From: Candidatus Aenigmatarchaeota archaeon | GTDB taxonomy: Archaea > Aenigmatarchaeota > Aenigmatarchaeia > QMZP01 > QMZT01 | Direction: 5' to 3' | Length of the DNA: 64,000 nt | Assembly: GCA_041489155.1 (NCBI GenBank) | Contig: JBGPQP010000003.1 | Coordinates: forward strand, 23,297 to 87,296 | Part shown: positions 5,612-55,132 of the stretch, in pieces | Layout: every line of letters starts with the position of its first letter | Position numbering within the stretch: position 1 is the stretch's first letter | The notes under the pieces: generated by a model | The model's input: only the letters and a program-made list of their open reading frames with translations | Databases searched by the model: none | What the model was told of the DNA's origin: nothing | Program-made: the position numbers and the translations under genes

Positions 5612-6805
5612 ATGAAAGCGGATAAAGCGGTCATACTTTGCGCGGGCAGATCGACGAGGACCTATCCCCTGACTCTCGGCAGGCCCAAGCCTCTTCTCAA
5701 GGTCGCGAACAAGACCATACTCGAATGGAACCTCGGCCAGCTGCAGGACCTGGTCAGCGAGGCGGTTCTTGTAACAGGGTACAGGGGAGAGATGATAAGG
5801 GAGCGTATAGGCAAAAGATACGGCAAGCTGAAGATTACGTATGCCGGGCAGACCGAGCCGCTGGGGACGGGCCACGCGCTGCTGCAGGCGGAGAAATGCG
5901 CGGGAGAAAAATTCATAGTGATGATGGGCGACAATTTTTACAGGCGCGAGGACATCGCGAAATGCGCTAAAGATTTAGCGATGCTTGCGATGAAAGCTGA
6001 GAATCCCGATGACTACGGCGTCATCAAAAAAAGCGGGAACGCGCTTTCAGGGATCATCGAAAAGCCGGAGAAGCCCAAATCCGACCTGGTCAACTGCGGG
6101 CTTTACGTGCTGAACAGCGAGATTTTCGGCCTGCTGAAAAAGGCCGGCAGATCCAGAAGGGGCGAAATCGAGCTGACCGACGCCGTCAACGCCTTCGCCA
6201 GGCACAAGTACGTCCGTGTCGTGGAAACGCAGAAGTGCTTCATGATAACCTATCCATGGGACCTGCTCTCGCTTAACGAGTTCCTCCTCTCGCAAACAAA
6301 GAGAAACATAAGGGGGACGAAGGAAGCGAACGTGACGCTGAAAGGCAACGTTTCGGTCGGCAAAGGCACGCTGCTCAGGTCTGGGACGTACATAGAAGGT
6401 CCTGCAGCGATAGGAGAGAACTGCGACATCGGGCCCAACTGCTACATCCGCAGCGGGACATCGATAGGCGACGGATGCAGGATAGGCAATTCAGTCGAGG
6501 TAAAGAACTCGATAGTAATGGACAACACGAGCATCGGCCATCATGCCTACGTCGGCGACTCGGTAATAGACGAAAACGTGAATTTCGGCGCCGGCACCAA
6601 GATCGCGAACCTGAGGCACGACGAAGCGAACGTCAAATCGATGATCAGGGGCGTCCTGCTCGACACAAACAGGAGGAAGTTCGGCAGTGTCATAGGCCGA
6701 GGAGCGCGCGTAGGCATCAATACTTCCATTTATCCGGGCAGGAAGCTCTGGCCCGGCACCACCACGCTTCCGGGAGAAGTCGTCAAGTATGACAAGGAAA
6801 AATAA
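5612..6805 (+). CDS. Bifunctional sugar-1-phosphate nucleotidylyltransferase / left-handed beta-helix acyltransferase (archaeal GlmU-like)
   Basis: N-terminal NTP-transferase motif KAVILCAGRSTRTYPLT. The C-terminal half consists of hexapeptide repeats (IGENCDIGPNCYIRSGTSIGDGCRIGNSVEVKNSIV...). Confidence 0.8.
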   Translation: MKADKAVILCAGRSTRTYPLTLGRPKPLLKVANKTILEWNLGQLQDLVSEAVLVTGYRGEMIRERIGKRYGKLKITYAGQTEPLGTGHALLQAEKCAGEKFIVMMGDNFYRREDIAKCAKDLAMLAMKAENPDDYGVIKKSGNALSGIIEKPEKPKSDLVNCGLYVLNSEIFGLLKKAGRSRRGEIELTDAVNAFARHKYVRVVETQKCFMITYPWDLLSLNEFLLSQTKRNIRGTKEANVTLKGNVSVGKGTLLRSGTYIEGPAAIGENCDIGPNCYIRSGTSIGDGCRIGNSVEVKNSIVMDNTSIGHHAYVGDSVIDENVNFGAGTKIANLRHDEANVKSMIRGVLLDTNRRKFGSVIGRGARVGINTSIYPGRKLWPGTTTLPGEVVKYDKEK

Positions 6806-32117: not shown

Positions 32118-32687
32118 ATGGTCGAGTTTCACATAAAGGTCGAAAATGTAGTCGCCTTTGCTGTTTTAGGCAAGAGAATCGTGCTCAACAAGCTCGTTGA
32201 AAAAATGGGCAACACCGAATACGAGCCCGAACAGTTCCCGGGCCTCGTCTACAGGATAAAGGACCCGAGGGCGGCTGCGCTTATTTTCTCGTCAGGCAAG
32301 ATAGTCTGCACCGGAGCGAAGAGCATAGCTATGGCAAAGGAAGCCATGAGGAAAATCGTGCAGGACATAAAGAAGACAGGCACCGCCATGCCGACGAAGT
32401 TCAACATAAACATAGAGAACATAGTCGCGTCGACTAAAATCGACGTCAAGCCAAGGCTCATGCTCGAGGAAATCGCCATGTCGCTCGAGGAAGTGGAATA
32501 CGAGCCCGAACAGTTCCCCGGCCTTGTTTACAGGATGAAGAGCCCGCGAACCGCTTTCCTGCTTTTCGGCTCGGGCAAGATAATCTGCACGGGCGGCCGC
32601 AGCCTGGAGGACATAAACACTGCACTGAACAACTTCAAGAAGCGGCTGGAAGGGATAGGCCTGAAAATCAAGCCGGCGAAAGACTGA
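32118..32687 (+). CDS. tbp: TATA-box binding protein
   Basis: 189 aa with two direct repeats. Both contain EYEPEQFPGLVYR and G(K)I(V/I)CTG. Confidence 0.95.
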   Translation: MVEFHIKVENVVAFAVLGKRIVLNKLVEKMGNTEYEPEQFPGLVYRIKDPRAAALIFSSGKIVCTGAKSIAMAKEAMRKIVQDIKKTGTAMPTKFNINIENIVASTKIDVKPRLMLEEIAMSLEEVEYEPEQFPGLVYRMKSPRTAFLLFGSGKIICTGGRSLEDINTALNNFKKRLEGIGLKIKPAKD

Positions 32688-33752: not shown

Positions 33753-34547
33753 ATGCCTGAGGTTTTTCAATACGGTTCTAATCTGAGCAAGGATCGCTTT
33801 ACTAGTAGGATGTTGCAGGGTGAATATAGGCCCGTGAGTGATCTTGGCAGATATGATTTAAATGGGTGCGAAGTCGTATTTGATGTTCCCAGTCAAACCG
33901 TACGCGTAGCTGCTGACATGATACCTTCTCAGCCTTCTTCACGTGCTGTCGGAAGAGTTTGGGGCATAACAAAAAAACAATTTGAAACTCTCAAAGGATT
34001 CGAGGGTCCTCGTTATAGAGAGGAAAGAATACAGATACCCGGAGTTGGCAATGCAATAACGTTTGTTGGCACGGATGATGCCAGAAGAATTTTCAGAGCA
34101 CAACATTCTGGCGAGTTGCCTACAGGAGAGTATCTTCATCACATCATAACCGGACTTAATGATCCTAACGTAAGAGCAGAAATAGAATATATAAGTCAAA
34201 TTATAGGAAAAGGAAGACCAAATCTCTCTGGAAGTAGAAGAGATGTCAGGCAAACCTTTGACAACCCTAGAGAATTTATGACATCTTCAATCGGAATCGA
34301 CAGAAATTTAAGAGACGATTTGGGAGTAGGAGTAGGAGATTTTGTTCGGGTACATTATGATAGAAATTGGCTTAATCTTCAGGTAAGAAAGGCCCCAATA
34401 GAATTAGTCGATTCTACTCTGTCACCCGTAACTCTTTCAAGAAAAGCTAGAGAATTTCTTGGCATGCGACCCGTTTCGCAAAGGGACGCGGAAAGCTTCA
34501 GAACAATATATCCTGGATTATCCATCACCAGATTAGAAAATTTATAG
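33753..34547 (+). CDS. Gamma-glutamylcyclotransferase (AIG2)-like domain fused to a C-terminal AbrB/VatN-like cradle-loop-barrel-type domain
   Basis: 264 aa. The N-terminal VFQYGSNL (the YGSN motif of GGCT) and FEGPRY (a candidate catalytic Glu in an EG context) are collinear with human GGCT FAYGSNL...EQEGV. The C-terminus carries two half-motifs, IDRNLRDDLGVGVGDFVRV and LSRKAREFLGM. Sampled lines of the gene are AT-richer than its neighbours. Confidence 0.5.
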   Translation: MPEVFQYGSNLSKDRFTSRMLQGEYRPVSDLGRYDLNGCEVVFDVPSQTVRVAADMIPSQPSSRAVGRVWGITKKQFETLKGFEGPRYREERIQIPGVGNAITFVGTDDARRIFRAQHSGELPTGEYLHHIITGLNDPNVRAEIEYISQIIGKGRPNLSGSRRDVRQTFDNPREFMTSSIGIDRNLRDDLGVGVGDFVRVHYDRNWLNLQVRKAPIELVDSTLSPVTLSRKAREFLGMRPVSQRDAESFRTIYPGLSITRLENL

Positions 34548-34572: not shown

Positions 34573-36171
34573 ATGACCTCGTTCAATTCAATAACTATGA
34601 GCTTCGTGAGCCATCCGATGATCAGGCCGAATGCGATAGAGTCGAGACTCTACCAGGAAGCGATAGTCGGCAGGGCGGCAGCGAACGACCTGCTCTGTGT
34701 GTTGCCAACGGGATTGGGCAAGACTCCTATAGCCATCGTTTTAGCCGTTCACCGCCTTGAGAAATTCCCGGGCTCTAAGGTACTGGTCATGGCGCCGACC
34801 AAGCCGCTGACCGAGCAACATCTGCATTCTTTCATGCGGGCGATAAATCTGCCGGATGAGGAGTTCGTCCTGGTCACAGGAAAGACAAAGCCTGGCAGCA
34901 GGCAGGAGCTTTACAGGAACGCCAGAATAATTTTTGCCACGCCGCAGACCATCGAGAACGATCTGGAAGGGGGAAGGATAAACCTGGAGGACTTCTCCCT
35001 CCTGGTCTTCGACGAGGCGCACCATTCGATAGGAGATTACGCTTACCCTTACATAGCTAAGGCGTATGCCGGGCAGGCGAAGAACCGCAGGATCCTCGGC
35101 CTGACAGCATCCCCGGGCGGGACGAAGGCTAAGATAAAGGAGATCATGGACAACCTCGGCATCCGCGAGGTCGAGATACGGACGGAGAAAGATTTCGATG
35201 TGGAGCCGTGGGTGCAGGAGAAGCATGTGGAATGGGTCTACGTCAGGCTGCCGGACGCCTTCGTTGAACTGGGCAAAACGCTCAGAAAAGCCTATATGGA
35301 CAGGCTGGAGAAGCTCAGGAAAATAGGCTTCAACAAGCCCGTCGGCATCATAAGCAAGCGTGACCTTCTGGCGCTGCAACAGAAGCTCATGGCCAGCCCC
35401 TCGCGCGACTACACCAAGTTCTGGGGCGTTTCGCTGGTCTCGCAGGCGATAAAGCTCGAGCACGCGCTCGGCCTGCTTGAGACGCAGGGCATAACATCGC
35501 TCTGGAACTACTTCAGGAAGCTGTCTTCAAGCAAGGCAAAATCGTCACGGAGCGTGCTGAAGGACAAGAACGTGATAAAGGCGATGAAGCTATCCGAAGC
35601 GCTGGAGGCCGAAGGCCGCAAGCATCCGAAGATGGCGAAGCTCAGCGAGCTCGTTAGCTTCCAGCTGCGCGAAAAACCCGCCTCGAAAATCATCCTGTTC
35701 GCGAATTACAGGGAGATGGTCAGGGAGCTAGTCAAGACGCTGTCCAATGTTGAAGGCGCGAGGCCTGGCGAATTCATGGGACAGAAGGAAGGGATGACGC
35801 AGAACGAACAGAAGCAGCGCATACAGGAGTTCAAGGACGGCATCTATAACATACTGGTAACCACATCAATCGGCGAGGAAGGAATTGACATACCGGAGAT
35901 GGAGCTCGCGATTTTCTACGAGCCCGTCCCTAGCGAAATTCGTTCGATTCAGCGGCGCGGACGAGTGGGGCGAACGAAAGTCGGCAGGATAATCATACTC
36001 ATGGCCAAGGGCACGAGGGACGAAGCGTATTACTGGACCGCGCAGAGAAAGGAAAGCATCATGAGGAAAACGCTGTACGAGATGAAGGAGGAATCACGAT
36101 TCCCGGAGGTGCCGACGCGTCAAAGAAGAAAGATTGCCAAGAGAAATCAGAGTAGTTTATCGGATTTCTGA
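34573..36171 (+). CDS. hef: Hef/FANCM-type SF2 helicase (helicase module only, no ERCC4 nuclease domain)
   Basis: 532 aa. Motifs I LPTGLGKT, II FDEAHH, III LTASPG and VI QRRGRVGR. The protein ends ...KRNQSSLSDF. Confidence 0.8.
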   Translation: MTSFNSITMSFVSHPMIRPNAIESRLYQEAIVGRAAANDLLCVLPTGLGKTPIAIVLAVHRLEKFPGSKVLVMAPTKPLTEQHLHSFMRAINLPDEEFVLVTGKTKPGSRQELYRNARIIFATPQTIENDLEGGRINLEDFSLLVFDEAHHSIGDYAYPYIAKAYAGQAKNRRILGLTASPGGTKAKIKEIMDNLGIREVEIRTEKDFDVEPWVQEKHVEWVYVRLPDAFVELGKTLRKAYMDRLEKLRKIGFNKPVGIISKRDLLALQQKLMASPSRDYTKFWGVSLVSQAIKLEHALGLLETQGITSLWNYFRKLSSSKAKSSRSVLKDKNVIKAMKLSEALEAEGRKHPKMAKLSELVSFQLREKPASKIILFANYREMVRELVKTLSNVEGARPGEFMGQKEGMTQNEQKQRIQEFKDGIYNILVTTSIGEEGIDIPEMELAIFYEPVPSEIRSIQRRGRVGRTKVGRIIILMAKGTRDEAYYWTAQRKESIMRKTLYEMKEESRFPEVPTRQRRKIAKRNQSSLSDF

Positions 36172-36183
36172 TCAGGTTAAATG

Positions 36184-37140
36184 TTATATTCGAATGTGGC
36201 GTAATTCACCTCTCGTGTATAGTGTTCTCCGTAAACGAAACAAAGCCCTTTGCCTAAGCTGACTAATTCGTACAGGTGTGACATCATATTTCCAAGCAAG
36301 TTGTCTAGTTTTCCCTAAATCAATGTTATCAGTAAACTTGAAACTCACAACATCGCCATGTTTTCTGCCTTTTTCTACTGTTTTTATTATTCCAAATGAT
36401 TCTAATAGATGTTCTGGAACATCTGAAAGAGGACCATATTTAGATTCAACGTATTTTAAAATTTCAGACCTATCCACGGGTTCAGTAGTTAAATTGTTTC
36501 TATTAAAATCATAATATTTTTCAATTATTGAAAATTCTCTCTCGGGAAGTGAGGATAGAGCTGAGTTCAAAGCCATGCACAACCTTTCTTCAAAATCAAT
36601 CTCAGATGATGTTTTTTTAGATAAAATTAAGTCTTTATACCACCACTGATCTTCTTCTGTGGGTACTGGCCATTTGTCCACCAAGTTTAAAATAATACCA
36701 GCCAGACATTTTCTCATATACAGATCGTAATTCTTATCTTTGCCCGATGTGTGTTTTCTCTGGTTACCTAAAAATTGTATAAACGCTTCCTGAATAATAT
36801 CTTCCCTGTCCTCTTCTGTCGTATCCGACCTTTTTTTGTATTCCACACAATTGTCGAATATTCTCTTCATTATTTCCAAAACCTTACCGGTTTCCATGTT
36901 TTTTTCCAACTTTCCAATTCCATTAGTGTATCCTAAAATTTTCATTTCCTCTCTCGTGGTCAAACCAAGTTCTTTCCTAACATGGGAAGGATTGCTATCG
37001 AAAAAATGTTTATAAACATCACTATGTCCTGCATCGCTTATTTCATAGATATTAGGATTCCTTCGGTTTTTTGTACAAAATCCTAAGTAAAACTCTAAAA
37101 ATTCATCCCTCTTTCCCAAACATATTTCTGTATTTGCCAT
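36184..37140 (-). CDS. Sigma-70-family-like protein (region 2-like plus split region 4-like HTH)
   Basis: 318 aa. EDREDIIQEAFIQFL...NYDLYMRKCLAGIILNLV resembles sigma region 2.1-2.2 (compare RpoE [11 protein letters not shown]...[16 protein letters not shown]). ALSSLPEREFSIIEKYY ... TRQLAWKYDVTPVRISQLRQRALFRLRR resembles region 4.1/4.2. Sampled lines of the gene are AT-rich. Confidence 0.5.
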   Translation of the reverse strand: MANTEICLGKRDEFLEFYLGFCTKNRRNPNIYEISDAGHSDVYKHFFDSNPSHVRKELGLTTREEMKILGYTNGIGKLEKNMETGKVLEIMKRIFDNCVEYKKRSDTTEEDREDIIQEAFIQFLGNQRKHTSGKDKNYDLYMRKCLAGIILNLVDKWPVPTEEDQWWYKDLILSKKTSSEIDFEERLCMALNSALSSLPEREFSIIEKYYDFNRNNLTTEPVDRSEILKYVESKYGPLSDVPEHLLESFGIIKTVEKGRKHGDVVSFKFTDNIDLGKTRQLAWKYDVTPVRISQLRQRALFRLRRTLYTRGELRHIRI

Positions 37141-37177
37141 ATTTCCAATTCAAATTAAATTCTAAGATTTAAATAAG

Positions 37178-37194
37178 CTACTATCTTATAGTAG
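37178..37194. promoter_or_regulatory. Perfect palindrome in the divergent sigma-like/gatD intergenic region
   Basis: ctactat-ctt-atagtag: 7-bp arms and a 3-nt spacer, lying between starts at 37140 (-) and 37253 (+). It could be an operator; no supporting data. Confidence 0.25.
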
Positions 37195-37252
37195 TTAATA
37201 ATTAAAACACCACAAAAAGTTATTTTAAATCATGTAGCATAATAGTCTAATT

Positions 37253-38629
37253 ATGTATTCTCACGAAATACAGCGGCTTCTCGGGCACAAGAACATCGCC
37301 ATTGGCGACAGGGTCCTCGTCCAGAAGGACGGCAAAAAGCACGAGGGCCTGCTCATGCCAAAGCCTTCCCACGGCGACGAGAGAACGGTTCTCATAAAGC
37401 TTGACAGCGGCTACAACGTCGGCTTCGATATAACCGGCCTCGTGATTTCGAAGGCGCATTCGAAAGAGCCGAAAGACGTGAAAGAAGAGGCGAAATACGA
37501 ATTCGGCAGGACGAACAAAGAGCTGCTTGAACTGAAGTTCGATGCGAACAAGCCTAAGGTCGCGCTAATCTCGACCGGCGGCACCATTGCTTCGCGGGTT
37601 GATTACAGGACAGGAGGCGTCTACGCTGTCGAGAATCCCAAGGAGCTCCTGCACAACATACCCGAGCTTTCTCACATAGTTAATCTCGAGATGTTCAGCC
37701 CGATTAAGAAGATGAGCGAGGATCTCGACCCTGAGGACTGGCAGCACATCGCCAGGGAGGTCGCTAAAGAGTTGAACGCCGGAAAAAAGGGTGTGATTGT
37801 AACGCACGGCACGGACACGCTGCATTACACTTCCGCTGCGTTATCATTTTTCCTTCAGAATCTCGGCAAACCCGTCGTCCTTGTAGGCGCGCAGAGGTCG
37901 AGCGACCGGGGCTCGAGCGACGCCGGCCTGAACATCATCTGCGCGGCGCACGTCGCCGTGTCTGACATCGCCGAGGTCGGGACGTGCATGCACGGCAGCA
38001 CGAATGACGCATACTGCCATTTCATCCGCGGGACGAAGGTGCGCAAGATGCACACGACCAGGCGCGACGCCTTCCAGCCGATAAACGAGCCCGCGCTGGC
38101 GAGGGTCTTCGCTGATGGCAGGATCGATATAATCAACAAGAACTTCAGGAAAAGAGATGACAAGAAGAAGGTGGAGGTCGACGCAAAAATCGACCCGAAC
38201 GTCGCGATACTCAAGGTCTATCCCGGCTCGCACTCGAATGTGATCGATTATCACATCAGGAACGGGTGTAAAGGCTTCGTCATCGAGGGGACCGGCATGG
38301 GCCACGTGCCTACTGAAGTCTCGAAAAAGCCTTGGACCCTTGCGATAAAGAAGCACTCGGAAACCATCCCGTTTGTCATAACCTCCCAGACAATTTACGG
38401 CAGGGTAAACCCATACGTCTACACGAACCTGCGCAAGCTGTTCATCGATTCCGGAGCGATTCCTGGCGAGGACATGACCAGCGAAACTGCGTATGTCAAG
38501 CTCATGTGGGTGCTCGGCAAGACAAAGAGTATGGAGAAGATACGCGAGATGATGCTTACGAACTACGTCGGTGAAATCACCAGCCGCACGGAAACCGACG
38601 CCTTTTCTGCAGAGGGATTGAATGAGTGA
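37253..38629 (+). CDS. gatD: Glu-tRNA(Gln) amidotransferase subunit D
   Basis: 458 aa. GatD N-terminal domain followed by an asparaginase domain (LISTGGTIAS, HGTDTL). Confidence 0.92.
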   Translation: MYSHEIQRLLGHKNIAIGDRVLVQKDGKKHEGLLMPKPSHGDERTVLIKLDSGYNVGFDITGLVISKAHSKEPKDVKEEAKYEFGRTNKELLELKFDANKPKVALISTGGTIASRVDYRTGGVYAVENPKELLHNIPELSHIVNLEMFSPIKKMSEDLDPEDWQHIAREVAKELNAGKKGVIVTHGTDTLHYTSAALSFFLQNLGKPVVLVGAQRSSDRGSSDAGLNIICAAHVAVSDIAEVGTCMHGSTNDAYCHFIRGTKVRKMHTTRRDAFQPINEPALARVFADGRIDIINKNFRKRDDKKKVEVDAKIDPNVAILKVYPGSHSNVIDYHIRNGCKGFVIEGTGMGHVPTEVSKKPWTLAIKKHSETIPFVITSQTIYGRVNPYVYTNLRKLFIDSGAIPGEDMTSETAYVKLMWVLGKTKSMEKIREMMLTNYVGEITSRTETDAFSAEGLNE

Positions 38630-39773
38630 GATTTTAACTAAAAAGTTGCACAAAAATTCAGATAGAAAATTTTCGCTTATTTTAGCTAAACCCAAAAATA
38701 AGGCAGACGTTCCTAAAAATTTGTGGGAAAAATCAAAAAGGATAGTGGTTAATCGATTTCGTGAAGAATATGTACCTCTTTATCTCTTAAATTCATATAA
38801 GATTAAGATAGATAAGTTGGTTGTGAACAACACATACGGAAGGCCTATTAAATTTGTTACGGAATTAACAGAGGATTTCGCAAAAATAATAGGTGCTATT
38901 TGTTCGGATGGCCATATAACAACTAAATCAAAAGCTGATTATATCATACAGTTGGTCGATTCCGACAAAACAGCAGTCATAGCTTTTCAGAAATGGATTG
39001 AAAATATATTTGGTAGAAAGTATACTGTCAATAAGGACTATACATCGAACTCGTGGAGAATAGATATAAACAACAAGATCATAGGCCGTTACTTGGTTGA
39101 TGTTATAGGGCTCCCTACCAATAAAAAATCTGATACTGTAAGATCACCAAAAGTTATAATGAGAAGTACTTCAGATATTCAAAAGGCATTTTGCGTTGGA
39201 GCTTTAACTTTCGATGGAGGAATAGACATAAGCGGTAATATAGAATTTTTAACACGTAGCAAACAATTCTATTTGGATATTGTTAGAATCCTGAAAAGAT
39301 TGAATATCGATGCGTACTACAAAAAAACAAGCGATAAAAACGGATTTTGGAGGTTCCATTTGTGCAGATCATCCCCAGAATATAAAAAATGGTTGCAACT
39401 TTTTGAAAAGGGAACAGAGAAATGGGAAAAAATAAAAGAAAACGTAAATGGTTTCAAAAAGATACCAACTTCGGAGAACGAAGTTCTTGAAACATTCAGC
39501 AGAGTATTCCCCTCTAAAAACAGAAGCTTTGTAAACATCTCTGATTTTTTTAATTGCCTAAAGAAAGCTGGAAATTGTAATATAGAGGAACTAACGAAGA
39601 AATTAAATATAGATAAAACCACAACAAATAAATATAGAAAAGTTCTGAAAGATTGCAATATAATACGCGAAGAACACATTGAGGGCAAGAAATATAAAAT
39701 AGAGATATGCTTCAATAAAAATATACACGAATGGAGAATACCAAAAAGGTCTTATAATGGAATTGGATTATAA
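38622..39773 (+). CDS. Free-standing double-motif LAGLIDADG homing-endonuclease-like protein with a C-terminal winged-helix domain
   Basis: 383 aa. Two LAGLIDADG-type motifs, FAKIIGAICSDGHI and FCVGALTFDGGI, both keep the acidic residue before G. The connector GLPTNKKSDTVRSP is typical of the family. The C-terminal NIEELTKKLNIDKTTTNKYRKVLKDCNII looks like an HTH. It overlaps gatD by 8 nt and gatE by 17 nt and is very AT-rich. Confidence 0.6.
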   Translation: MSEILTKKLHKNSDRKFSLILAKPKNKADVPKNLWEKSKRIVVNRFREEYVPLYLLNSYKIKIDKLVVNNTYGRPIKFVTELTEDFAKIIGAICSDGHITTKSKADYIIQLVDSDKTAVIAFQKWIENIFGRKYTVNKDYTSNSWRIDINNKIIGRYLVDVIGLPTNKKSDTVRSPKVIMRSTSDIQKAFCVGALTFDGGIDISGNIEFLTRSKQFYLDIVRILKRLNIDAYYKKTSDKNGFWRFHLCRSSPEYKKWLQLFEKGTEKWEKIKENVNGFKKIPTSENEVLETFSRVFPSKNRSFVNISDFFNCLKKAGNCNIEELTKKLNIDKTTTNKYRKVLKDCNIIREEHIEGKKYKIEICFNKNIHEWRIPKRSYNGIGL

Positions 39774-49760: not shown

Positions 49761-49807
49761 TTAATTAGTAACGATTCGAAGATTTCAACTACCAGAGGTG
49801 TTTGTGG

Positions 49808-51184
49808 ATGGATTTCGGCTTTGAAGGCTTCGACTCCGGTTTCACCGGTTTTGACGTGGATGTAGAAGAGTTTCAGGTCAGCAAAAAGAAGAAATATGAC
49901 AGGATATGGAAAGTCGGTTTCGGCGGAAGCGTGTGTTCAAAACCCGTCATACTCAATGACGTAATATACTTCGGCTCCCTCGACCACAACGTTTATGCTA
50001 TTGATATCAAAACGGAAAAAGAGGTCTGGAGATTCAAGACCAACGGCATAATATTGGATTCTTCCCCGACGATACACAATGGTGTATTGTTTATAGGATG
50101 TTTTGGCGGAACCATTCATGCAATAAACATTCGGACAGGCAGGGAAGTGTGGAATTACAAGGCAGGAGGAGAGATAAACTGCAGGCCGCTTGTCTGGAAC
50201 GGCGCGGTTTATTTCACGTCGAAGGACGGTTTTCTTTACGCCGTATACGAAACGGGAGGGAAGGAAATCTGGCGCTTCCGGACAGGAGACGAAATGGTTT
50301 CATCTCCCACTGTCCACAAAGGCAAAATATTCATCGGTTCTTATGACGGCAATCTTTATTGCATCAAGGAGGATACAGGCAAGGAGCTGTGGAGATTCAG
50401 AACAGGGGCGGAGATAGAGAACGATGACCAGTTCCTCATACACGAAGACATCATCTACTTCGGAGGCTTTGACAATTTCCTTTATGCGGTTGATATCGAA
50501 ACCGGCAAGGAAATATGGAGGTTCAGGACCGGCAAGTATGGCAACAACAGCGTTCCAGTGATTCATAACGATGTTCTTTACCATGGAAGCAGGGACGGCA
50601 TTTTTTACGCGCTTTCGCTTGAAGGCAAGGAGATATGGAGGTTCAAGGCGGGAGCGGAGATAACGGACAAGGGCCCGCTCGTATACAGGGGCAGGATTCA
50701 CTTCGGGTGTGGCGACGGGAACGTGTATTGCTTGAGCACCGAAGGAGAGGAAATATGGCGTTACAAGACGGACGGAGGCGTGTACACTTCGATAGTCGAG
50801 CATGAAGGGGTCCTATACTTCGGCAGCTGGGACTGCCACCTGTATGCGCTGGACGCGGACACAGGCAGGGAAATTTGGAGGTTCACGACAAGCACGCTAA
50901 CAAAAGCCCCATTACCTCCTGCATACGAATGCTTCGAGATGGAAATCAAAAAGGAAACGCACATAGAAGAGGCCATGGGAGACAGCAGGTACAAGAAGAA
51001 AAGGGAAGAGACATCGTCCCTATCAGATTATCATATTACAAGCGAATACCACACGGAATCGGAGTACAAGCAGAAATCAGAGTACGATACGAACTGGGTC
51101 ATGTTTGAAGATGTCATGGAAGGAGAGGAATTATGTCTTTTGGATTCGAAGGTTTCGCATCCTCGGATTTTGAGACCGAGCTAG
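49808..51184 (+). CDS. PQQ-like 8-bladed beta-propeller protein, paralogue 1
   Basis: The track start at 49802 is TTG; I prefer the ATG at 49808 (MDFGFEGFDSGF...). Eight ~40-aa blades of the type VIYFGS.D..VYAID..TGKEVWRFKT. No signal peptide or TM segment. Confidence 0.8.
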   Translation: MDFGFEGFDSGFTGFDVDVEEFQVSKKKKYDRIWKVGFGGSVCSKPVILNDVIYFGSLDHNVYAIDIKTEKEVWRFKTNGIILDSSPTIHNGVLFIGCFGGTIHAINIRTGREVWNYKAGGEINCRPLVWNGAVYFTSKDGFLYAVYETGGKEIWRFRTGDEMVSSPTVHKGKIFIGSYDGNLYCIKEDTGKELWRFRTGAEIENDDQFLIHEDIIYFGGFDNFLYAVDIETGKEIWRFRTGKYGNNSVPVIHNDVLYHGSRDGIFYALSLEGKEIWRFKAGAEITDKGPLVYRGRIHFGCGDGNVYCLSTEGEEIWRYKTDGGVYTSIVEHEGVLYFGSWDCHLYALDADTGREIWRFTTSTLTKAPLPPAYECFEMEIKKETHIEEAMGDSRYKKKREETSSLSDYHITSEYHTESEYKQKSEYDTNWVMFEDVMEGEELCLLDSKVSHPRILRPS

Positions 51185-52488
51185 AGGATTTCAGCGTGAA
51201 GAGGATCGGCAAGTTCGACAGGATGTGGAAGATTACCGAAGGCGGCAGCATAGCCCATTCCATACTGCACGACGGCATGGTTTACTTCGGTTCTTGTGAC
51301 AGAAATGTTTACGCCGTTGATTGCAAGAGCGGCAAGGAGATATGGAGGTTCAAGACCGGAGGACCTGTAACAGCAATGCCCTTTTTTAAGGAAGGCGTGC
51401 TTTACATAGGCTCGCATGACGGCAAATTCTATGCGCTTGAAGCAAAGAGTGGAAAGGAGATGTGGAGATTCAACGCAGGCAGCGAGATATTTTCCGGTTC
51501 ATTCGTTCATGAGGGCATGATTTTCTTCGGCTGCAGGAGCGGTTATTTTTACGCGCTGAACACCGAAGGCGAAGAGCTCTGGAGGTTCAGGACGGGCAGC
51601 GAAATAGTCTTCAATCCCGTCGCCGCAAATGGAAAGGTTTTCGTGGGCTCGTTCGACAGGAACCTTTATTGCTTGGACTTCGAAAACGGCAAAGAACTCT
51701 GGAGGTTTAAGACAGGAGACATCGTGCACGCTGACATCATGCCGCTGGTTCTGGAAAATATGATTTACTTCGCTTCTTTTGACAGCTATCTGTACGCAGT
51801 CGACGTTACAAGCGGCAAGGAGATATGGAGGTTCAAGACAGGAAAATACGGAAATGCAGGAAGTCCCGTGTGTTACAGAGGAGTCATCTACCACGGTTCC
51901 AGAGACGGAATTCTTTATGTCCTGACTCTTGAAGGCAAAGAAATGTGGAGATTCAAGACGGGAGGCATGCTAGAATCTCCACCTCTAGTCAAGGATGCTT
52001 ATGTTTATCTGACTTCCGAGGACGGGAATGTTTACTGCCTAAATCTCGATGGGAAAGAGCTGTGGAGGTTCAAGGCCGGAGGAGCGATTTACACCTCGCC
52101 TAAATTCTACAAAAACGTTCTTTACATTGGCTCATGGGACTGCCATCTTTATGCGCTGAATCTCAGGGGGGAAGAAATCTGGAGATTCGCAACAAGCTCT
52201 CTCGTTCCAGCACAAATACCGCCGGCCCACGAGGCCTTCAAGATGGAGATATCAAAAACGTTTGAAAGCGATACCATTGAAGAAAAGGACAAATACAAGG
52301 CGAAGAAAGACGAGACAATCTCGCTTTCCGACTATCACGTCAAAAGTGAATATCACACGGAAAGCGAGTACAAGCAGAAGAGTGAATATGAAGCCAACTG
52401 GGTTATATTTGAAGGAGTTCTAGAAGGTGAACAGATATGGACTTCGGATTTGAAGATCTTGACACCGGCTTCTCGGCTTTCGACGTAG
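51133..52488 (+). CDS. PQQ-like 8-bladed beta-propeller protein, paralogue 2
   Basis: Starts MSFGFEGFASSDFETELEDF, with its own GGAGAGG 5 nt upstream. Eight blades. The start lies 52 nt inside paralogue 1, in another frame. Confidence 0.8.
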   Translation: MSFGFEGFASSDFETELEDFSVKRIGKFDRMWKITEGGSIAHSILHDGMVYFGSCDRNVYAVDCKSGKEIWRFKTGGPVTAMPFFKEGVLYIGSHDGKFYALEAKSGKEMWRFNAGSEIFSGSFVHEGMIFFGCRSGYFYALNTEGEELWRFRTGSEIVFNPVAANGKVFVGSFDRNLYCLDFENGKELWRFKTGDIVHADIMPLVLENMIYFASFDSYLYAVDVTSGKEIWRFKTGKYGNAGSPVCYRGVIYHGSRDGILYVLTLEGKEMWRFKTGGMLESPPLVKDAYVYLTSEDGNVYCLNLDGKELWRFKAGGAIYTSPKFYKNVLYIGSWDCHLYALNLRGEEIWRFATSSLVPAQIPPAHEAFKMEISKTFESDTIEEKDKYKAKKDETISLSDYHVKSEYHTESEYKQKSEYEANWVIFEGVLEGEQIWTSDLKILTPASRLST

Positions 52489-53819
52489 ACGTAGAGGAAG
52501 TCGTGGTGAAGAAGACGAAGACTTACGACAGGGTATGGAAGACAACCATGGGCGGGAGCATAGACAACAACCCGCTGATGCATGAAGGGATTATCTACTT
52601 TGGCGCGTGCGACGGCCAAGTCTATGCGGTTGATGCAGGAAGCGGCAAAGTCATCTGGACGTTCAGGACGAGCGACACCATAGTCGGCTCCTCGCCCGCG
52701 CTTTTCGGGAACTCGATAATCATAGGATCGTACGACGGGAACCTCTACAGGATAGATTTGGAAAAAAGGGATGCGGTCTGGGTTTTTAAAACCTCGGGCA
52801 AGATATTCAGCTCGCCGTTTGTATACGGGGAAAACGCCTATTTCGGCTCGATGGACGGTAACGTTTATGCGGTCAACTGCGAGGTCGGCAAGGAGACCTG
52901 GAGATTCAGGACGGGCGGGGAGATAGCGTCATCGCCGCTGGTTGAGAACGGAAAGGTGTACATCACATCTTACGACCATAACATGTATTGCTTGGATGCT
53001 GAAACAGGAAAGGAATTGTGGAGGTTCAGGACAGGGGACGAGATGATAAACAACATACCCTTCATAGTACACAGGGGAGTTCTCTATTTTGGCAGCCTAG
53101 ACAATTATCTTTACGCTGTTGACTGCAACACAGGCAAGGAGCTGTGGAGATTCAAAGCTGGCAAATACGGCATCGGAGGCAGCATGCCAGTCGTCCACAA
53201 AGATGTGCTTTACTTCGGTACAAGGGACGGGGACTTTTTTGCCCTCACTCTTAGAGGTAAGGAGCTCTGGCGCTTCCGCGCGGGCGAGCCGATAATCGGA
53301 CAGCAGCCAAGGATTTACAATGGCATGATAATTTTCGGATGCGAGGACGGCAACATTTATTTCCTTGATATCAAAGGCAAGGAAATAGGAAGATTCAAGA
53401 CAGGCGGAAGACTTTACGGAAAGTTCCTTTTGCATGAAGGCAAGATATACATCGGCAGCTGGGACTGTTATCTTTATTGCATAGATACTGAGAACAGGAA
53501 GGAAGTATGGAGATGCCCGACGTCGACAATGGTGCAGGCCTACATACCGCCGGCACACGCCTCGTTCAGCGTCGAGATAAAGAAGGGCGTGCATATAGAA
53601 GACGCTGTCAGCGAGGACAAATACAGGTCGAAAAAGAAGGAAGAAGTTGTTTCCCTTTCTGATTATCACGTGAAAAGCGAATATCATACGGAAAGCGAGT
53701 ACAAACAAAAATCAGAATACGATACTAACTGGGTTATGTTTGAAGATGTCACGGAAGGAGAGGAATTATGTCTTTTGGATTCGACACTTTTGAATCCGGT
53801 TTCTCGGATTTTGATGTAG
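52437..53819 (+). CDS. PQQ-like 8-bladed beta-propeller protein, paralogue 3
   Basis: Starts MDFGFEDLDTGFSAFDVDVEE, with AAGGTGA 6 nt upstream. Eight blades. Overlaps paralogue 2 by 52 nt. Confidence 0.8.
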   Translation: MDFGFEDLDTGFSAFDVDVEEVVVKKTKTYDRVWKTTMGGSIDNNPLMHEGIIYFGACDGQVYAVDAGSGKVIWTFRTSDTIVGSSPALFGNSIIIGSYDGNLYRIDLEKRDAVWVFKTSGKIFSSPFVYGENAYFGSMDGNVYAVNCEVGKETWRFRTGGEIASSPLVENGKVYITSYDHNMYCLDAETGKELWRFRTGDEMINNIPFIVHRGVLYFGSLDNYLYAVDCNTGKELWRFKAGKYGIGGSMPVVHKDVLYFGTRDGDFFALTLRGKELWRFRAGEPIIGQQPRIYNGMIIFGCEDGNIYFLDIKGKEIGRFKTGGRLYGKFLLHEGKIYIGSWDCYLYCIDTENRKEVWRCPTSTMVQAYIPPAHASFSVEIKKGVHIEDAVSEDKYRSKKKEEVVSLSDYHVKSEYHTESEYKQKSEYDTNWVMFEDVTEGEELCLLDSTLLNPVSRILM

Positions 53820-55132
53820 ACGTTGAAGAAGTGACGATGAGGAAGACCAAGAAGTTCGACCGCGTATTCCGCGTCGGCTTCGGCGGCAGCATAAACCAGA
53901 AGCCGCTTATTTTGGGCGATATCATCGTTTTCGGCTCCATGGACCATTACCTTTATGCGGTTAATCTGGAGACCGGCATGGAAGCATGGAGGATGAAGGC
54001 GAACGGCATCTTCATGGAATCGTCGCCCGTGACAGACGGCGAGACGGTTTTCATTGGCAGTTATGATTATTGCCTTTACGCAGTTGACCCCGAAGACGGC
54101 GGCATCAGATGGAGGTTCAGAACAGGAGGCGAAATCCTAGGCACGCCCGCACTGGACGAAAAGCATGTTTACATAGGTTCAAGGGATGGAAGCTTTTATT
54201 GTCTGGACAAAGAGTCGGGCAAAGAACTTTGGAGGTTCAGGACAGGAGACTGGGTTGTAGCGAGCGCATTTGTCGATAAGGGAAGGGTCTACATAGGCTC
54301 CTTTGATGGCAATTTCTACTGTCTCGACAAGCGCACAGGCAAGGAGATATGGCGCTTCAGGGCCGGTGCGGAGATATACGATGTCTACCCTGGTAATGTA
54401 ATGAATGGCAGAATTTTCGTTCCATGTTTTGACAACAACCTCTACTGCATCAATGCGGACAACGGCAAGGAAATATGGAGGTTCAGGGTCGGCAGATACG
54501 GCACTGCAACTGCGCCAGCCGTCTACAAAAACGTGCTTTACCAGGAATCAAGGGACGGCATCCTTTACGCCCTGACGCTTGATGGCAAGGAGATCTGGAG
54601 ATTCAAGACAGGCGGCCTCATAGGGATGCCTGTCATAAAAGAGGACAGGATCTATGTCGGCTCGGCTGACAAGAATCTTTACTGCGTAGATCTGCATGGA
54701 AAAGAGCTATGGAGATTCAGGACTGACGGAGATGTTTTCTGGTGCCCTGTGATAAAAGGCAACGTGATATACTTCACCTCTTGGGACTGCCACCTTTACG
54801 CCGTAGATTTGGAAACGCGCAAAGAGTTGTGGAGGTTTGCGACTTCCACGTTGTCGCAGGCCGAGTGGCCTCCTGCGTACGAAGGCTGGGAAGCAGAAAT
54901 AAAGAAGGGAATGCACATAGAGGACGCAATAACAGAGGAAAGATACAAGGCCAGGAAAAAGGAGAACGTGGTTTCACTCTCCGATTACCACGTTGCCAGC
55001 GAGTATCATATGGAATCTGAATATAAGCAAAAGTCTGATTACAGCACTAACTGGGCTATGTTCGAGGAAGACCTGATTACAGGGTTCATTCAGGCAGAGA
55101 GTATCAACATTCTGCAGAAATTTATGAAGTAA
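53768..55132 (+). CDS. PQQ-like 8-bladed beta-propeller protein, paralogue 4
   Basis: Starts MSFGFDTFESGFSDFDVDVEE, with GGAGAGG upstream. Eight blades. It is the only copy with a free C-terminus (...NWAMFEEDLITGFIQAESINILQKFMK). Confidence 0.8.
   Translation: MSFGFDTFESGFSDFDVDVEEVTMRKTKKFDRVFRVGFGGSINQKPLILGDIIVFGSMDHYLYAVNLETGMEAWRMKANGIFMESSPVTDGETVFIGSYDYCLYAVDPEDGGIRWRFRTGGEILGTPALDEKHVYIGSRDGSFYCLDKESGKELWRFRTGDWVVASAFVDKGRVYIGSFDGNFYCLDKRTGKEIWRFRAGAEIYDVYPGNVMNGRIFVPCFDNNLYCINADNGKEIWRFRVGRYGTATAPAVYKNVLYQESRDGILYALTLDGKEIWRFKTGGLIGMPVIKEDRIYVGSADKNLYCVDLHGKELWRFRTDGDVFWCPVIKGNVIYFTSWDCHLYAVDLETRKELWRFATSTLSQAEWPPAYEGWEAEIKKGMHIEDAITEERYKARKKENVVSLSDYHVASEYHMESEYKQKSDYSTNWAMFEEDLITGFIQAESINILQKFMK

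Follow-up and report, generated by a model that had tools for sequence, protein, structure and literature searches.

A highly diverged sigma-70-like gene on a replacement cassette between hef and gatD in an Aenigmatarchaeota archaeon

Sigma factors define transcription initiation in bacteria, and archaea use the TATA-binding protein (TBP) together with transcription factor B (TFB). Genes of the sigma-70 class have been described in DPANN archaea, where the family fam00359 is prevalent in Woesearchaeota and is carried with no anti-sigma partners (Castelle et al. 2021, PMC8204110). Two divergent “rpoS-like” genes are also reported from DPANN viruses of acid mine drainage, one of them in a provirus (PMC12647753). 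Here we describe a gene for a sigma-like protein of 318 residues, P0001, in a 64,000-nucleotide stretch of DNA from a Candidatus Aenigmatarchaeota archaeon (assembly GCA_041489155.1, contig JBGPQP010000003.1, positions 23,297 to 87,296), referred to below as the window. The initial annotation of the window implied less precedent than the published cases provide: to find a sigma-like gene among DPANN archaea is not new as such. P0001 and its one relative, P0002, likewise belong to the sigma family in DPANN or DPANN-viral DNA, co-occur with TBP/TFB and have no anti-sigma partner; the published genes come mainly from Woesearchaeota and from viruses of acid mine drainage. With two members and no detectable link to other proteins, they are not part of a widespread family. 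What is new, judged from the comparisons below, is an architecture in which an N-terminal domain is added and a conserved insertion of 63 residues splits the sigma-4 domain, the extreme isolation of the family (two members among ~15 billion public proteins) and the clean demonstration of a recently acquired replacement cassette.

Frame and profile evidence indicate that P0001 is the product of a real, intact gene and belongs, highly diverged, to the sigma-70 superfamily. We hold, with moderate confidence, that the product is a sequence-specific DNA-binding regulator of the accessory genome, probably carried on a horizontally acquired one-gene cassette in a clade of Aenigmatarchaeota. The open reading frame (ORF) runs uninterrupted from ATG to TAA (Table 1), and a 318-codon open frame would arise by chance in DNA of this composition with a probability of ~7.5e-13. 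As this probability is so low, and a collinear second member shares conserved blocks, we judge P0001 to be functional and not a relic. The gene was initially described as compositionally foreign, and it is: its G+C content (GC) is 0.34 and that of third codon positions (GC3) 0.29, against window medians of 0.53 and 0.69. It is among the 3 composition outliers in 58 non-overlapping ORFs of the window (36184-37140, 38622-39773 and 33753-34547; GC3 0.29-0.30), and GC drops sharply there, to 0.30-0.36 between flanks of 0.53-0.57. The details on which that description relied were also accurate: the G+C counts of two 60-nucleotide lines (18 at 36601-36660, 35 at 35941-36000), the positions of the hef stop (36169-36171) and the gatD ATG (37253), the three quoted peptides (found at residues 110-156, 194-210 and 275-305) and the RpoE segment, which on comparison is that of E. 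coli K-12.

Table 1. Features of the sigma-like gene, its predicted domains and its surroundings in the window.
Feature	Position	Strand	Description and basis
Sigma-like gene P0001	36184..37140	(-)	318 residues, ATG to TAA; ORF list and TIGR02937 match
N-terminal domain, predicted helical	36826..37140	(-)	Residues 1-105; 42% identity to P0002, best-conserved part
Sigma-2-like domain, regions 2.1-2.4	36616..36825	(-)	Residues 106-175; DREDIIQEAF and NYDLYMRKCLAGIILNL; 37% identity
Sigma-4 region 4.1 helices	36496..36615	(-)	Residues 176-215; ALSSLPEREFSIIEKYY; 20% identity; Sigma70_r4, hhalign and FliA PDB matches
Insertion splitting sigma-4, 63 residues	36307..36495	(-)	Residues 216-278; 29% identity; present in P0002
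Sigma-4 region 4.2 helix-turn-helix	36187..36306	(-)	Residues 279-318; KYDVTPVRISQLRQRALFRLRR; 20% identity
TATA-like box	37167..37176	(-)	TTATTTAAAT; 27-36 nt upstream of the sigma-like ATG
AT-rich replacement cassette	36096..37240	(.)	No nucleotide match in syntenic relatives; between hef and gatD
Hef-like helicase, native flank	34573..36171	(+)	Pfam DEAD, Helicase_C, ResIII; 78-80% nt identity to relatives
gatD, native flank	37253..38629	(+)	Pfam GatD_N, Asparaginase; divergent from the sigma-like gene

The assignment to the sigma-70 family, already made in the initial annotation, is borne out by profile searches, which return sigma models and not a generic LuxR or helix-turn-helix (HTH) fold alone. 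The top model is TIGR02937, the NCBIfam model of the superfamily of sigma-70 and extracytoplasmic function (ECF) sigma factors, which aligns residues 103-306 of P0001 with its positions 23-164 of 165 (E 1.7e-9, 37.5 bits) and is also the top model for P0002 (E 1.1e-7, 31.6 bits). Among the NCBIfam matches listed for native P0001, 10 of 10 are sigma models. Pfam finds only a partial Sigma70_r4 in the native protein (19.1 bits; model positions 1-18 over residues 194-214), the low score being due to the insertion that splits the sigma-4 domain. When the N-terminal domain and the 63-residue insert were excised in silico, the resulting spliced core matched Sigma70_r4 over positions 1-49 of 50 with 26.3 bits, over the gathering score of 24.1, and all 25 NCBIfam matches listed for it were sigma factors, with TIGR02937 reaching up to 40.9 bits. 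The sigma-4 segment alone (regions 4.1 and 4.2 with the insert removed) matched FliA_WhiG (TIGR02479, E 2.4e-7) and PRK06986 (E 2.6e-7). The sigma-2 and sigma-4 segments, searched apart, returned almost nothing but sigma models, with one weak exception (cyanase, E 0.15). At E up to 10, no LuxR, GerE, HTH_10 or Tfx model of Pfam and NCBIfam was matched by P0001 as a whole, by its spliced core or by the sigma-4 segment alone.

Comparison with five annotated E. coli sigmas (RpoE, FliA, RpoH, RpoS and RpoD) gave the same layout along the whole core. An hhalign comparison of the profile of P0001 and P0002 with the five-sigma alignment produced one collinear alignment (E 8e-5, probability 61%, 17% identity). 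In it region 2 falls at residues 110-155, sigma-3 is missing, regions 4.1 and 4.2 occupy 186-215 and 279-309, and residues 216-278 between them form an insertion. Single E. coli sigmas are too shallow for this method and gave a probability of 5-21%; every local match fell at the expected position, with residues 283-308 opposite RpoD 578-603. A region-4 hidden Markov model (HMM) built from E. coli sigmas scored P0001 at 31.2 bits, a score reached by none of 3000 shuffles (1 of 3000 for P0002). In a scan of all 609 six-frame segments of the window, only the P0001 ORF matched significantly, with E 3.7e-6 for the region-4 HMM and E 1.6e-5 for a full-length sigma HMM. PHROGs contributed two weak matches to phage sigma-factor families (E 6.6e-5 and 4.4e-4). 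A sequence search of the PDB found FliA and RpoD region 4 at E 0.03 to 1 only; the matches with lower E were designed helical repeat proteins aligned to the N-terminal helices of P0001. On the strength of these profile matches we regard the sigma-4 homology as firm.

Two sigma-matching segments had been proposed at first, and they did not fare equally. Region 4 stood, with the spliced Sigma70_r4 match over its gathering score; region 2 is much weaker and matches sigma models only. When the sigma-2 segments of both members were searched alone, 10 of 10 NCBIfam matches were sigma models at region-2 positions, the best of them weak (E 5e-4 for P0002, 7e-3 for P0001). The real region-2 score was reached by 2 of 3000 shuffles for P0001 and by 10 of 3000 for P0002, and the sigma-2 part contributes ~11 bits to the TIGR02937 score (40.9 vs 30.1). 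Sigma-2 homology is thus probable in our assessment but weakly supported. The block DREDI[IV]Q[EN]A[FY], the most conserved sigma block of the family, falls within it and aligns to the DLIQEG of region 2.2; its DREDI[IV]Q part is invariant.

The remainder of the protein consists of parts that match no family. The initial annotation had noted an unassignable N-terminal extension of about 110 residues; the domain comprises 105 residues and, searched alone, matches no Pfam or NCBIfam family. Its helices are taken from an AlphaFold2 model of low confidence. The 63-residue insertion, searched alone, likewise matches no Pfam or NCBIfam family; it is predicted to form a helix-helix-beta-hairpin and is the only segment of the model with a predicted local distance difference test (pLDDT) score of 64-79, the AlphaFold2 models built from two-sequence alignments for the full length and for residues 85-318 reaching 51 and 52. 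Foldseek returned recurring, non-significant winged-helix matches (RTP, PadR/LmrR and MarR-type), which we take as a hint about the predicted insert only. In region 4.2 the recognition-helix residues R291, I292, Q294 and L295, an RIxQL core, are invariant in P0001 and P0002.

Set beside the bacterial sigma groups, the P0001 core is ECF-like in layout because it has no sigma-3 domain in the alignment to sigmas, as in ECF sigmas. ECF (group 4) sigmas such as RpoE have the same sigma-2 plus sigma-4 core and the region 2.2 motif D-x-x-Q-E-A-F in common with it, and TIGR02937, the best model, is covered nearly end to end. P0001 and P0002 differ from ECF sigmas by the extra 105-residue N-terminal domain and the 63-residue sigma-4 insertion, and region 4 of P0001 matches the PF04545 (group 1-3) type and not the ECF-type model. 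They also differ in context: neither has an adjacent anti-sigma gene, P0001 being flanked by the Hef-like helicase gene and gatD and P0002 by ORFs of 181 and 100 residues, and the host of P0001 is an archaeon, archaea not being known to have a bacterial-type core polymerase. The FliA/WhiG sigmas (sigma-28, group 3) provide the best subfamily-level sigma-4 matches, and FliA the best sigma matches among solved structures (1rp3, 9wsf and 6pmi; E 0.03-0.3, not significant). By eye, region 2 of E. coli FliA aligns with P0001 without gaps from D..Q to F..Y......G..L; P0001 differs from this group in its missing sigma-3, its insertion, its N-terminal domain and its low identity.

Two further kinds of protein use sigma-like parts outside housekeeping transcription. 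MzaA (NF041931), of the sigma-70 family, has a sigma-like domain in a conflict context, and P0002 also lies among candidate defence genes; MzaA is, however, longer than 700 residues with other domains, its sigma-4 similarity to our proteins is weak (E 0.007-0.07), and no MZA partner genes are present. The archaeal Tfx, Bat/HTH_10 and LuxR solo proteins use a sigma-4-type HTH as ordinary DNA-binding regulators (PMC5413776) and are the working model here, although they are without sigma-2 and P0001 matches none of their models.

Protein matches and shared gene order identify the host as an Aenigmatarchaeota (DPANN) archaeon. That the gene sits in an archaeal chromosome, as first reported, was confirmed by GatD, which is 81-83% identical at the amino acid level to its relatives in several metagenome-assembled genomes (MAGs) of Candidatus Aenigmatarchaeota, whose sources include Lac Pavin sediment and Microflora Danica. 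The tbp gene noted in the same window is there as well (32118-32687, Pfam E 9e-59), and a CDP-archaeol synthase is encoded too. The relatives keep hef, gatD and gatE in synteny (77-80% nucleotide identity), and blastn alignments to three of their loci (L003, L004 and L009) end at 36084-36095 and restart at 37241-37242. The Hef-like gene is convergent with the sigma-like gene, their stop codons 12 nucleotides apart, and its C-terminus and stop are intact. On the other side, a junction alignment shows the gatD TATA box and CTAATTATG start context to be intact and conserved in relatives. In every relative the hef-gatD slot holds a plus-strand ORF of ~300 residues with a twin-arginine translocation (Tat)-type signal and a C-terminus resembling tetratricopeptide repeats (TPR), unrelated to P0001; the window retains no trace of that ORF. 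Because the syntenic slot of the relatives carries an unrelated gene, we read the sigma-like gene as a replacement cassette and not as a misassembly. The foreign AT-rich insert described initially is in this respect a segment without counterpart in syntenic relatives. The slot thus appears to be hypervariable, a single-gene cassette of ~1.1 kb having replaced the resident gene by horizontal transfer.

The resident protein of the relatives is fast-evolving (L003 4115-5954, L004 1639-2541, L009 5082-5975, L005 219-1121), with a Tat signal of the form RRNFI or RRREFL and an “LDCDTSS” motif. Its gene is tandemly duplicated in L003, and copies from different MAGs have no nucleotide match to one another. 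As a separate observation, the “hef” of the window (532 residues) corresponds to the helicase half of that protein (DEAD, Helicase_C and helical bundle) and has no nuclease domain, likewise in the relatives. No flanking direct or inverted repeats and no att-like sites were found around the three cassettes formed by the outlier ORFs. A 23-nucleotide match (78%) between the 3′ ends of the sigma-like ORF and the LAGLIDADG ORF at 38622-39773 is in different frames and was judged to be chance.

Host genes at the head of transcription units have TATA-like boxes that start 27-35 nucleotides upstream of the ATG. At many genes across the window, for example those beginning at 5612, 7392, 12246, 27241/27294, 30384, 37253 and 61939, boxes of the form TTTAAAA, ATTTAAA or TTTTATA start within a narrow range of 27-31 nucleotides upstream, which suggests that host transcripts are mostly leaderless. 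The box ahead of the sigma-like gene (Table 1) fits this arrangement, and we infer a putative archaeal promoter and a leaderless mRNA. A scan for bacterial-type promoters and terminators gave 7 sites, not above the 4.2 +/- 2.3 expected from shuffles.

Relatives of P0001 are exceedingly rare. When 1.84 billion representatives, which stand for ~15 billion proteins, were scanned exhaustively with HMMER, a single one emerged, P0002. Word-indexed searching of 5.8 billion protein clusters, by P0001 alone as well as by the profile of both sequences, returned P0001 itself only; the spliced sigma core without its insert retrieved no further members, nor did patterns scanned against JGI metagenomes, IMG/VR and the genomes of GTDB. 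Searches by tblastn of phages (INPHARED, 50,697 records) and of 72,556 plasmids found no relatives. The single match to a back-translated KDKNYDxYxxKC motif in metagenomes was a chance fragment of 16 codons. P0002 has 314 residues and 34% identity to P0001 and is collinear over its full length, N-terminal domain and insert included. It is carried on a 177-kb metagenomic contig that is identical in the ENA and Logan assemblies (100% over 7.5 kb), and it too is an AT-rich outlier (GC3 0.39 vs ~0.70 in its neighbours). The tetranucleotide composition of the host part of this contig correlates with that of the host DNA in the window at r = 0.94, compared with 0.93-0.96 for close relatives, 0.13-0.75 for distant Aenigmatarchaeota and 0.56 for E. 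coli at the same GC. Since these signatures agree, both members are placed in one narrow archaeal clade. Their 34% identity and the AT-richness of both most simply point to separate acquisitions from a low-GC donor pool. Many Aenigmatarchaeota genomes have a GC of 25-35% (PMC8407114).

The surroundings of P0002 look like a variable or archaeal defence island. Its neighbours are an AT-rich, divergent ORF of 181 residues and an ORF of 100 residues without Pfam match. The island further holds an AAA_14/DUF4143 ATPase gene (L001 314-1657 (-)) corresponding to the PADLOC candidate PDC-S01 (E 7e-89) and the gene of a 608-residue GHKL-type ATPase-like protein (L002 677-2503 (-)) corresponding to PDC-M33A (E 3e-26). 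The latter is set in a 3.1-kb stretch of 33% GC, and small HTH ORFs (78 residues, Myb/wHTH-like) lie between the two. The idea that the window gene was horizontally acquired or virus-derived is borne out only in its first half: composition and the missing counterpart in syntenic relatives favour acquisition, and no phage or IMG/VR relatives speak for a viral source. Neither member has a gene for capsid, terminase or integrase beside it, and the neighbouring cassette genes of the window have no IMG/VR relatives.

Under the reading we prefer, a DNA-binding regulator of the accessory genome, a low-GC cassette of ~1.1 kb would have entered by horizontal transfer and displaced the resident gene between hef and gatD. 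The archaeal machinery would transcribe its gene from the TATA box, placed as in host genes, and the basic sigma-4 recognition helix with its invariant RIxQL core would bind specific DNA. Protein-protein contacts would probably be made by the N-terminal domain and by the conserved surface of the sigma-2-like part (DREDI[IV]Q), and regulation would proceed by analogy with archaeal sigma-4/LuxR-type HTH proteins. DPANN genomes that carry sigma-70-class genes without anti-sigma partners offer a precedent (PMC8204110). Several observations weigh against it. A plain DNA-binding role leaves the retention of the sigma-2 core-binding motif unexplained, and the conservation analysis rests on two family members. 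The whole-protein TIGR02937 scores lie under the curated cut-off of 42.9 bits (37.5 for P0001, 40.9 for its spliced core, 31.6 for P0002), Pfam Sigma70_r2 was never matched by the native or the spliced protein, and a shallow region-2 HMM built from E. coli alone was not significant across the 609 window segments (E 0.9). Foldseek searches of the PDB with both poor AlphaFold models gave no significant match in favour of the fold, and the TATA motif sits in AT-rich DNA, where such motifs arise often. If the protein is merely a DNA-binding regulator, it shows bacterial parts being repurposed in the archaeal mobilome.

A role as part or regulator of a conflict or defence module in the mobilome, paralleling MzaA of the bacterial MZA anti-phage system, seems to us possible though unlikely; the sigma-like protein would then turn on a programme of defence or of a selfish element, or sense it. 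Such a role would suit the PDC-S01-like and PDC-M33A-like proteins and the AT-rich 181-residue ORF in the P0002 island, and the position of P0001 less than 6 kb from two other foreign cassettes, one of them LAGLIDADG homing-endonuclease-like. The weak sigma-4 matches to the MzaA model add to this, but they are no stronger than those to dozens of ordinary sigmas. P0001 and P0002 match no PADLOC model, tblastx finds the sigma-like gene as the only element common to their loci, which share no partner gene, and the window cassette is a single gene amid housekeeping genes. We consider it decidedly unlikely that the gene is instead a non-functional passenger, left over from a sigma factor of bacteria or phages. 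It is missing from all close relatives, the sigma-4 parts of P0001 and P0002 are only 20% identical, and archaea do not possess the bacterial core RNA polymerase that sigma factors serve; all this is what a relic would lead one to expect. A frame of 318 codons in DNA of 34% GC is nevertheless very improbable by chance, and the two proteins, at 34% identity, share their length, a four-part architecture and conserved blocks with no frameshifts. A host-type putative promoter is present as well. No bacterial or phage relative occurs in the ~15 billion proteins, the phage and plasmid records or IMG/VR; the family does not resemble a recent bacterial import.

There is little chance, in our view, that the archaeal RNA polymerase uses P0001 as a sigma-like factor for initiation or specificity, with sigma-2 on the clamp coiled-coil of Rpo1 and the split sigma-4 reading a promoter element, so that transcription would be steered to element-specific genes. 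The DLIQEG motif of region 2.2 binds the beta-prime coiled-coil in bacterial sigma-70, archaeal Rpo1 is homologous to beta-prime, and the most conserved sigma block of the family is the one aligned to this motif. Sigma-2 (37%) is better kept than sigma-4 (20%), as in paralogs that share a polymerase and differ in promoters. We know of no archaeon in which a sigma factor has been seen to interact with the polymerase; TBP is encoded, as presumably is TFB, and the two suffice, the likeness to sigma-2 is weak, and no candidate target promoters were identified. Sigma-like genes are, on the other side, repeatedly retained in DPANN without anti-sigma partners (PMC8204110). We grant as small a chance to a mobilome-borne variant of this role, in which a sigma-like factor with a winged-helix-like insert would redirect the archaeal RNA polymerase to element-specific or defence genes. 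Were this variant true, it would be the first sigma-type promoter specificity grafted onto the TBP/TFB system; any contact with the archaeal polymerase would mean that such specificity can be grafted onto machinery of the archaeal/eukaryotic type. Hardly credible is the view that P0001 is a generic HTH regulator only (LuxR/GerE, Tfx or HTH_10) with a spurious likeness to region 2. Many sigma-4-like HTH regulators exist in archaea (PMC5413776), and the failure of Sigma70_r2 and of the E. coli region-2 HMM would agree with it; yet none of the LuxR, GerE, HTH_10 and Tfx models is matched while sigma models are matched by the dozen, both sigma-2 segments independently match sigma models only, and the region-2 shuffles and the ~11 bits added to TIGR02937 speak for a real signal. 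The least probable explanation is an artefact of assembly or binning that placed a bacterial or phage fragment in an archaeal contig. Composition does jump sharply at both ends of the gene. The flanks are adjacent in every close relative, however, so that a chimera would take two exact misjoins, both sparing the stop of hef as well as the promoter and start of gatD; P0002 is arranged likewise on a contig found identical in two assemblies, and no searched collection holds a bacterial source sequence. Misassembly is very unlikely because both flanks re-enter the same syntenic locus with intact genes.

Sigma-like genes recur in DPANN archaea, and a well-bounded single-gene cassette with a host-type putative promoter and a motif resembling a polymerase-binding one offers a clean example. 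The locus also shows that certain intergenic positions amid the housekeeping genes of these small genomes act as hotspots at which foreign cassettes settle. In the window, three such cassettes of like composition, each a single gene, alternate with native genes inside 6 kb. The one at 38622-39773 (+) encodes a LAGLIDADG_3 protein (E 6e-8) of 383 residues with a C-terminal winged HTH (GC3 0.30) at the junction of gatD and gatE. The stop of gatD and the start of gatE overlap in L003 and L004 (..ATGAGTGA.., gatE “MSE..”). The LAGLIDADG ORF begins at the gatE ATG of the relatives (“MSEILTKK”); gatE itself has a new start at 39757 (“MELDYKK”), in a frame other than that of the LAGLIDADG ORF, whose end it overlaps. 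As the start is shared and gatE restarts downstream, this ORF is a free-standing homing-endonuclease-like gene that captured the gatE start, and not an intein. Another MAG (L005/L006/L009) carries different cargo at the same junction.

The remaining AT-rich foreign ORF, at 33753-34547 (+), encodes 264 residues (GC 0.41, GC3 0.30) with a weakly GGACT/AIG2-like N-terminus (E 3e-3), and a Shine-Dalgarno-like GGTGAGG precedes its ATG. It is missing in L003 and L009, in which an IF-2B-family gene abuts hef. Further downstream, at 49802-55132 (+), lie four tandem paralogous ORFs of 451-460 residues with 46-54% mutual identity and a GC of 0.48-0.49, slightly below that of the host; their products contain beta-propeller-like repeats (“VYAVD..G..W.F.T”), and each ORF overlaps the next by ~50 nucleotides.

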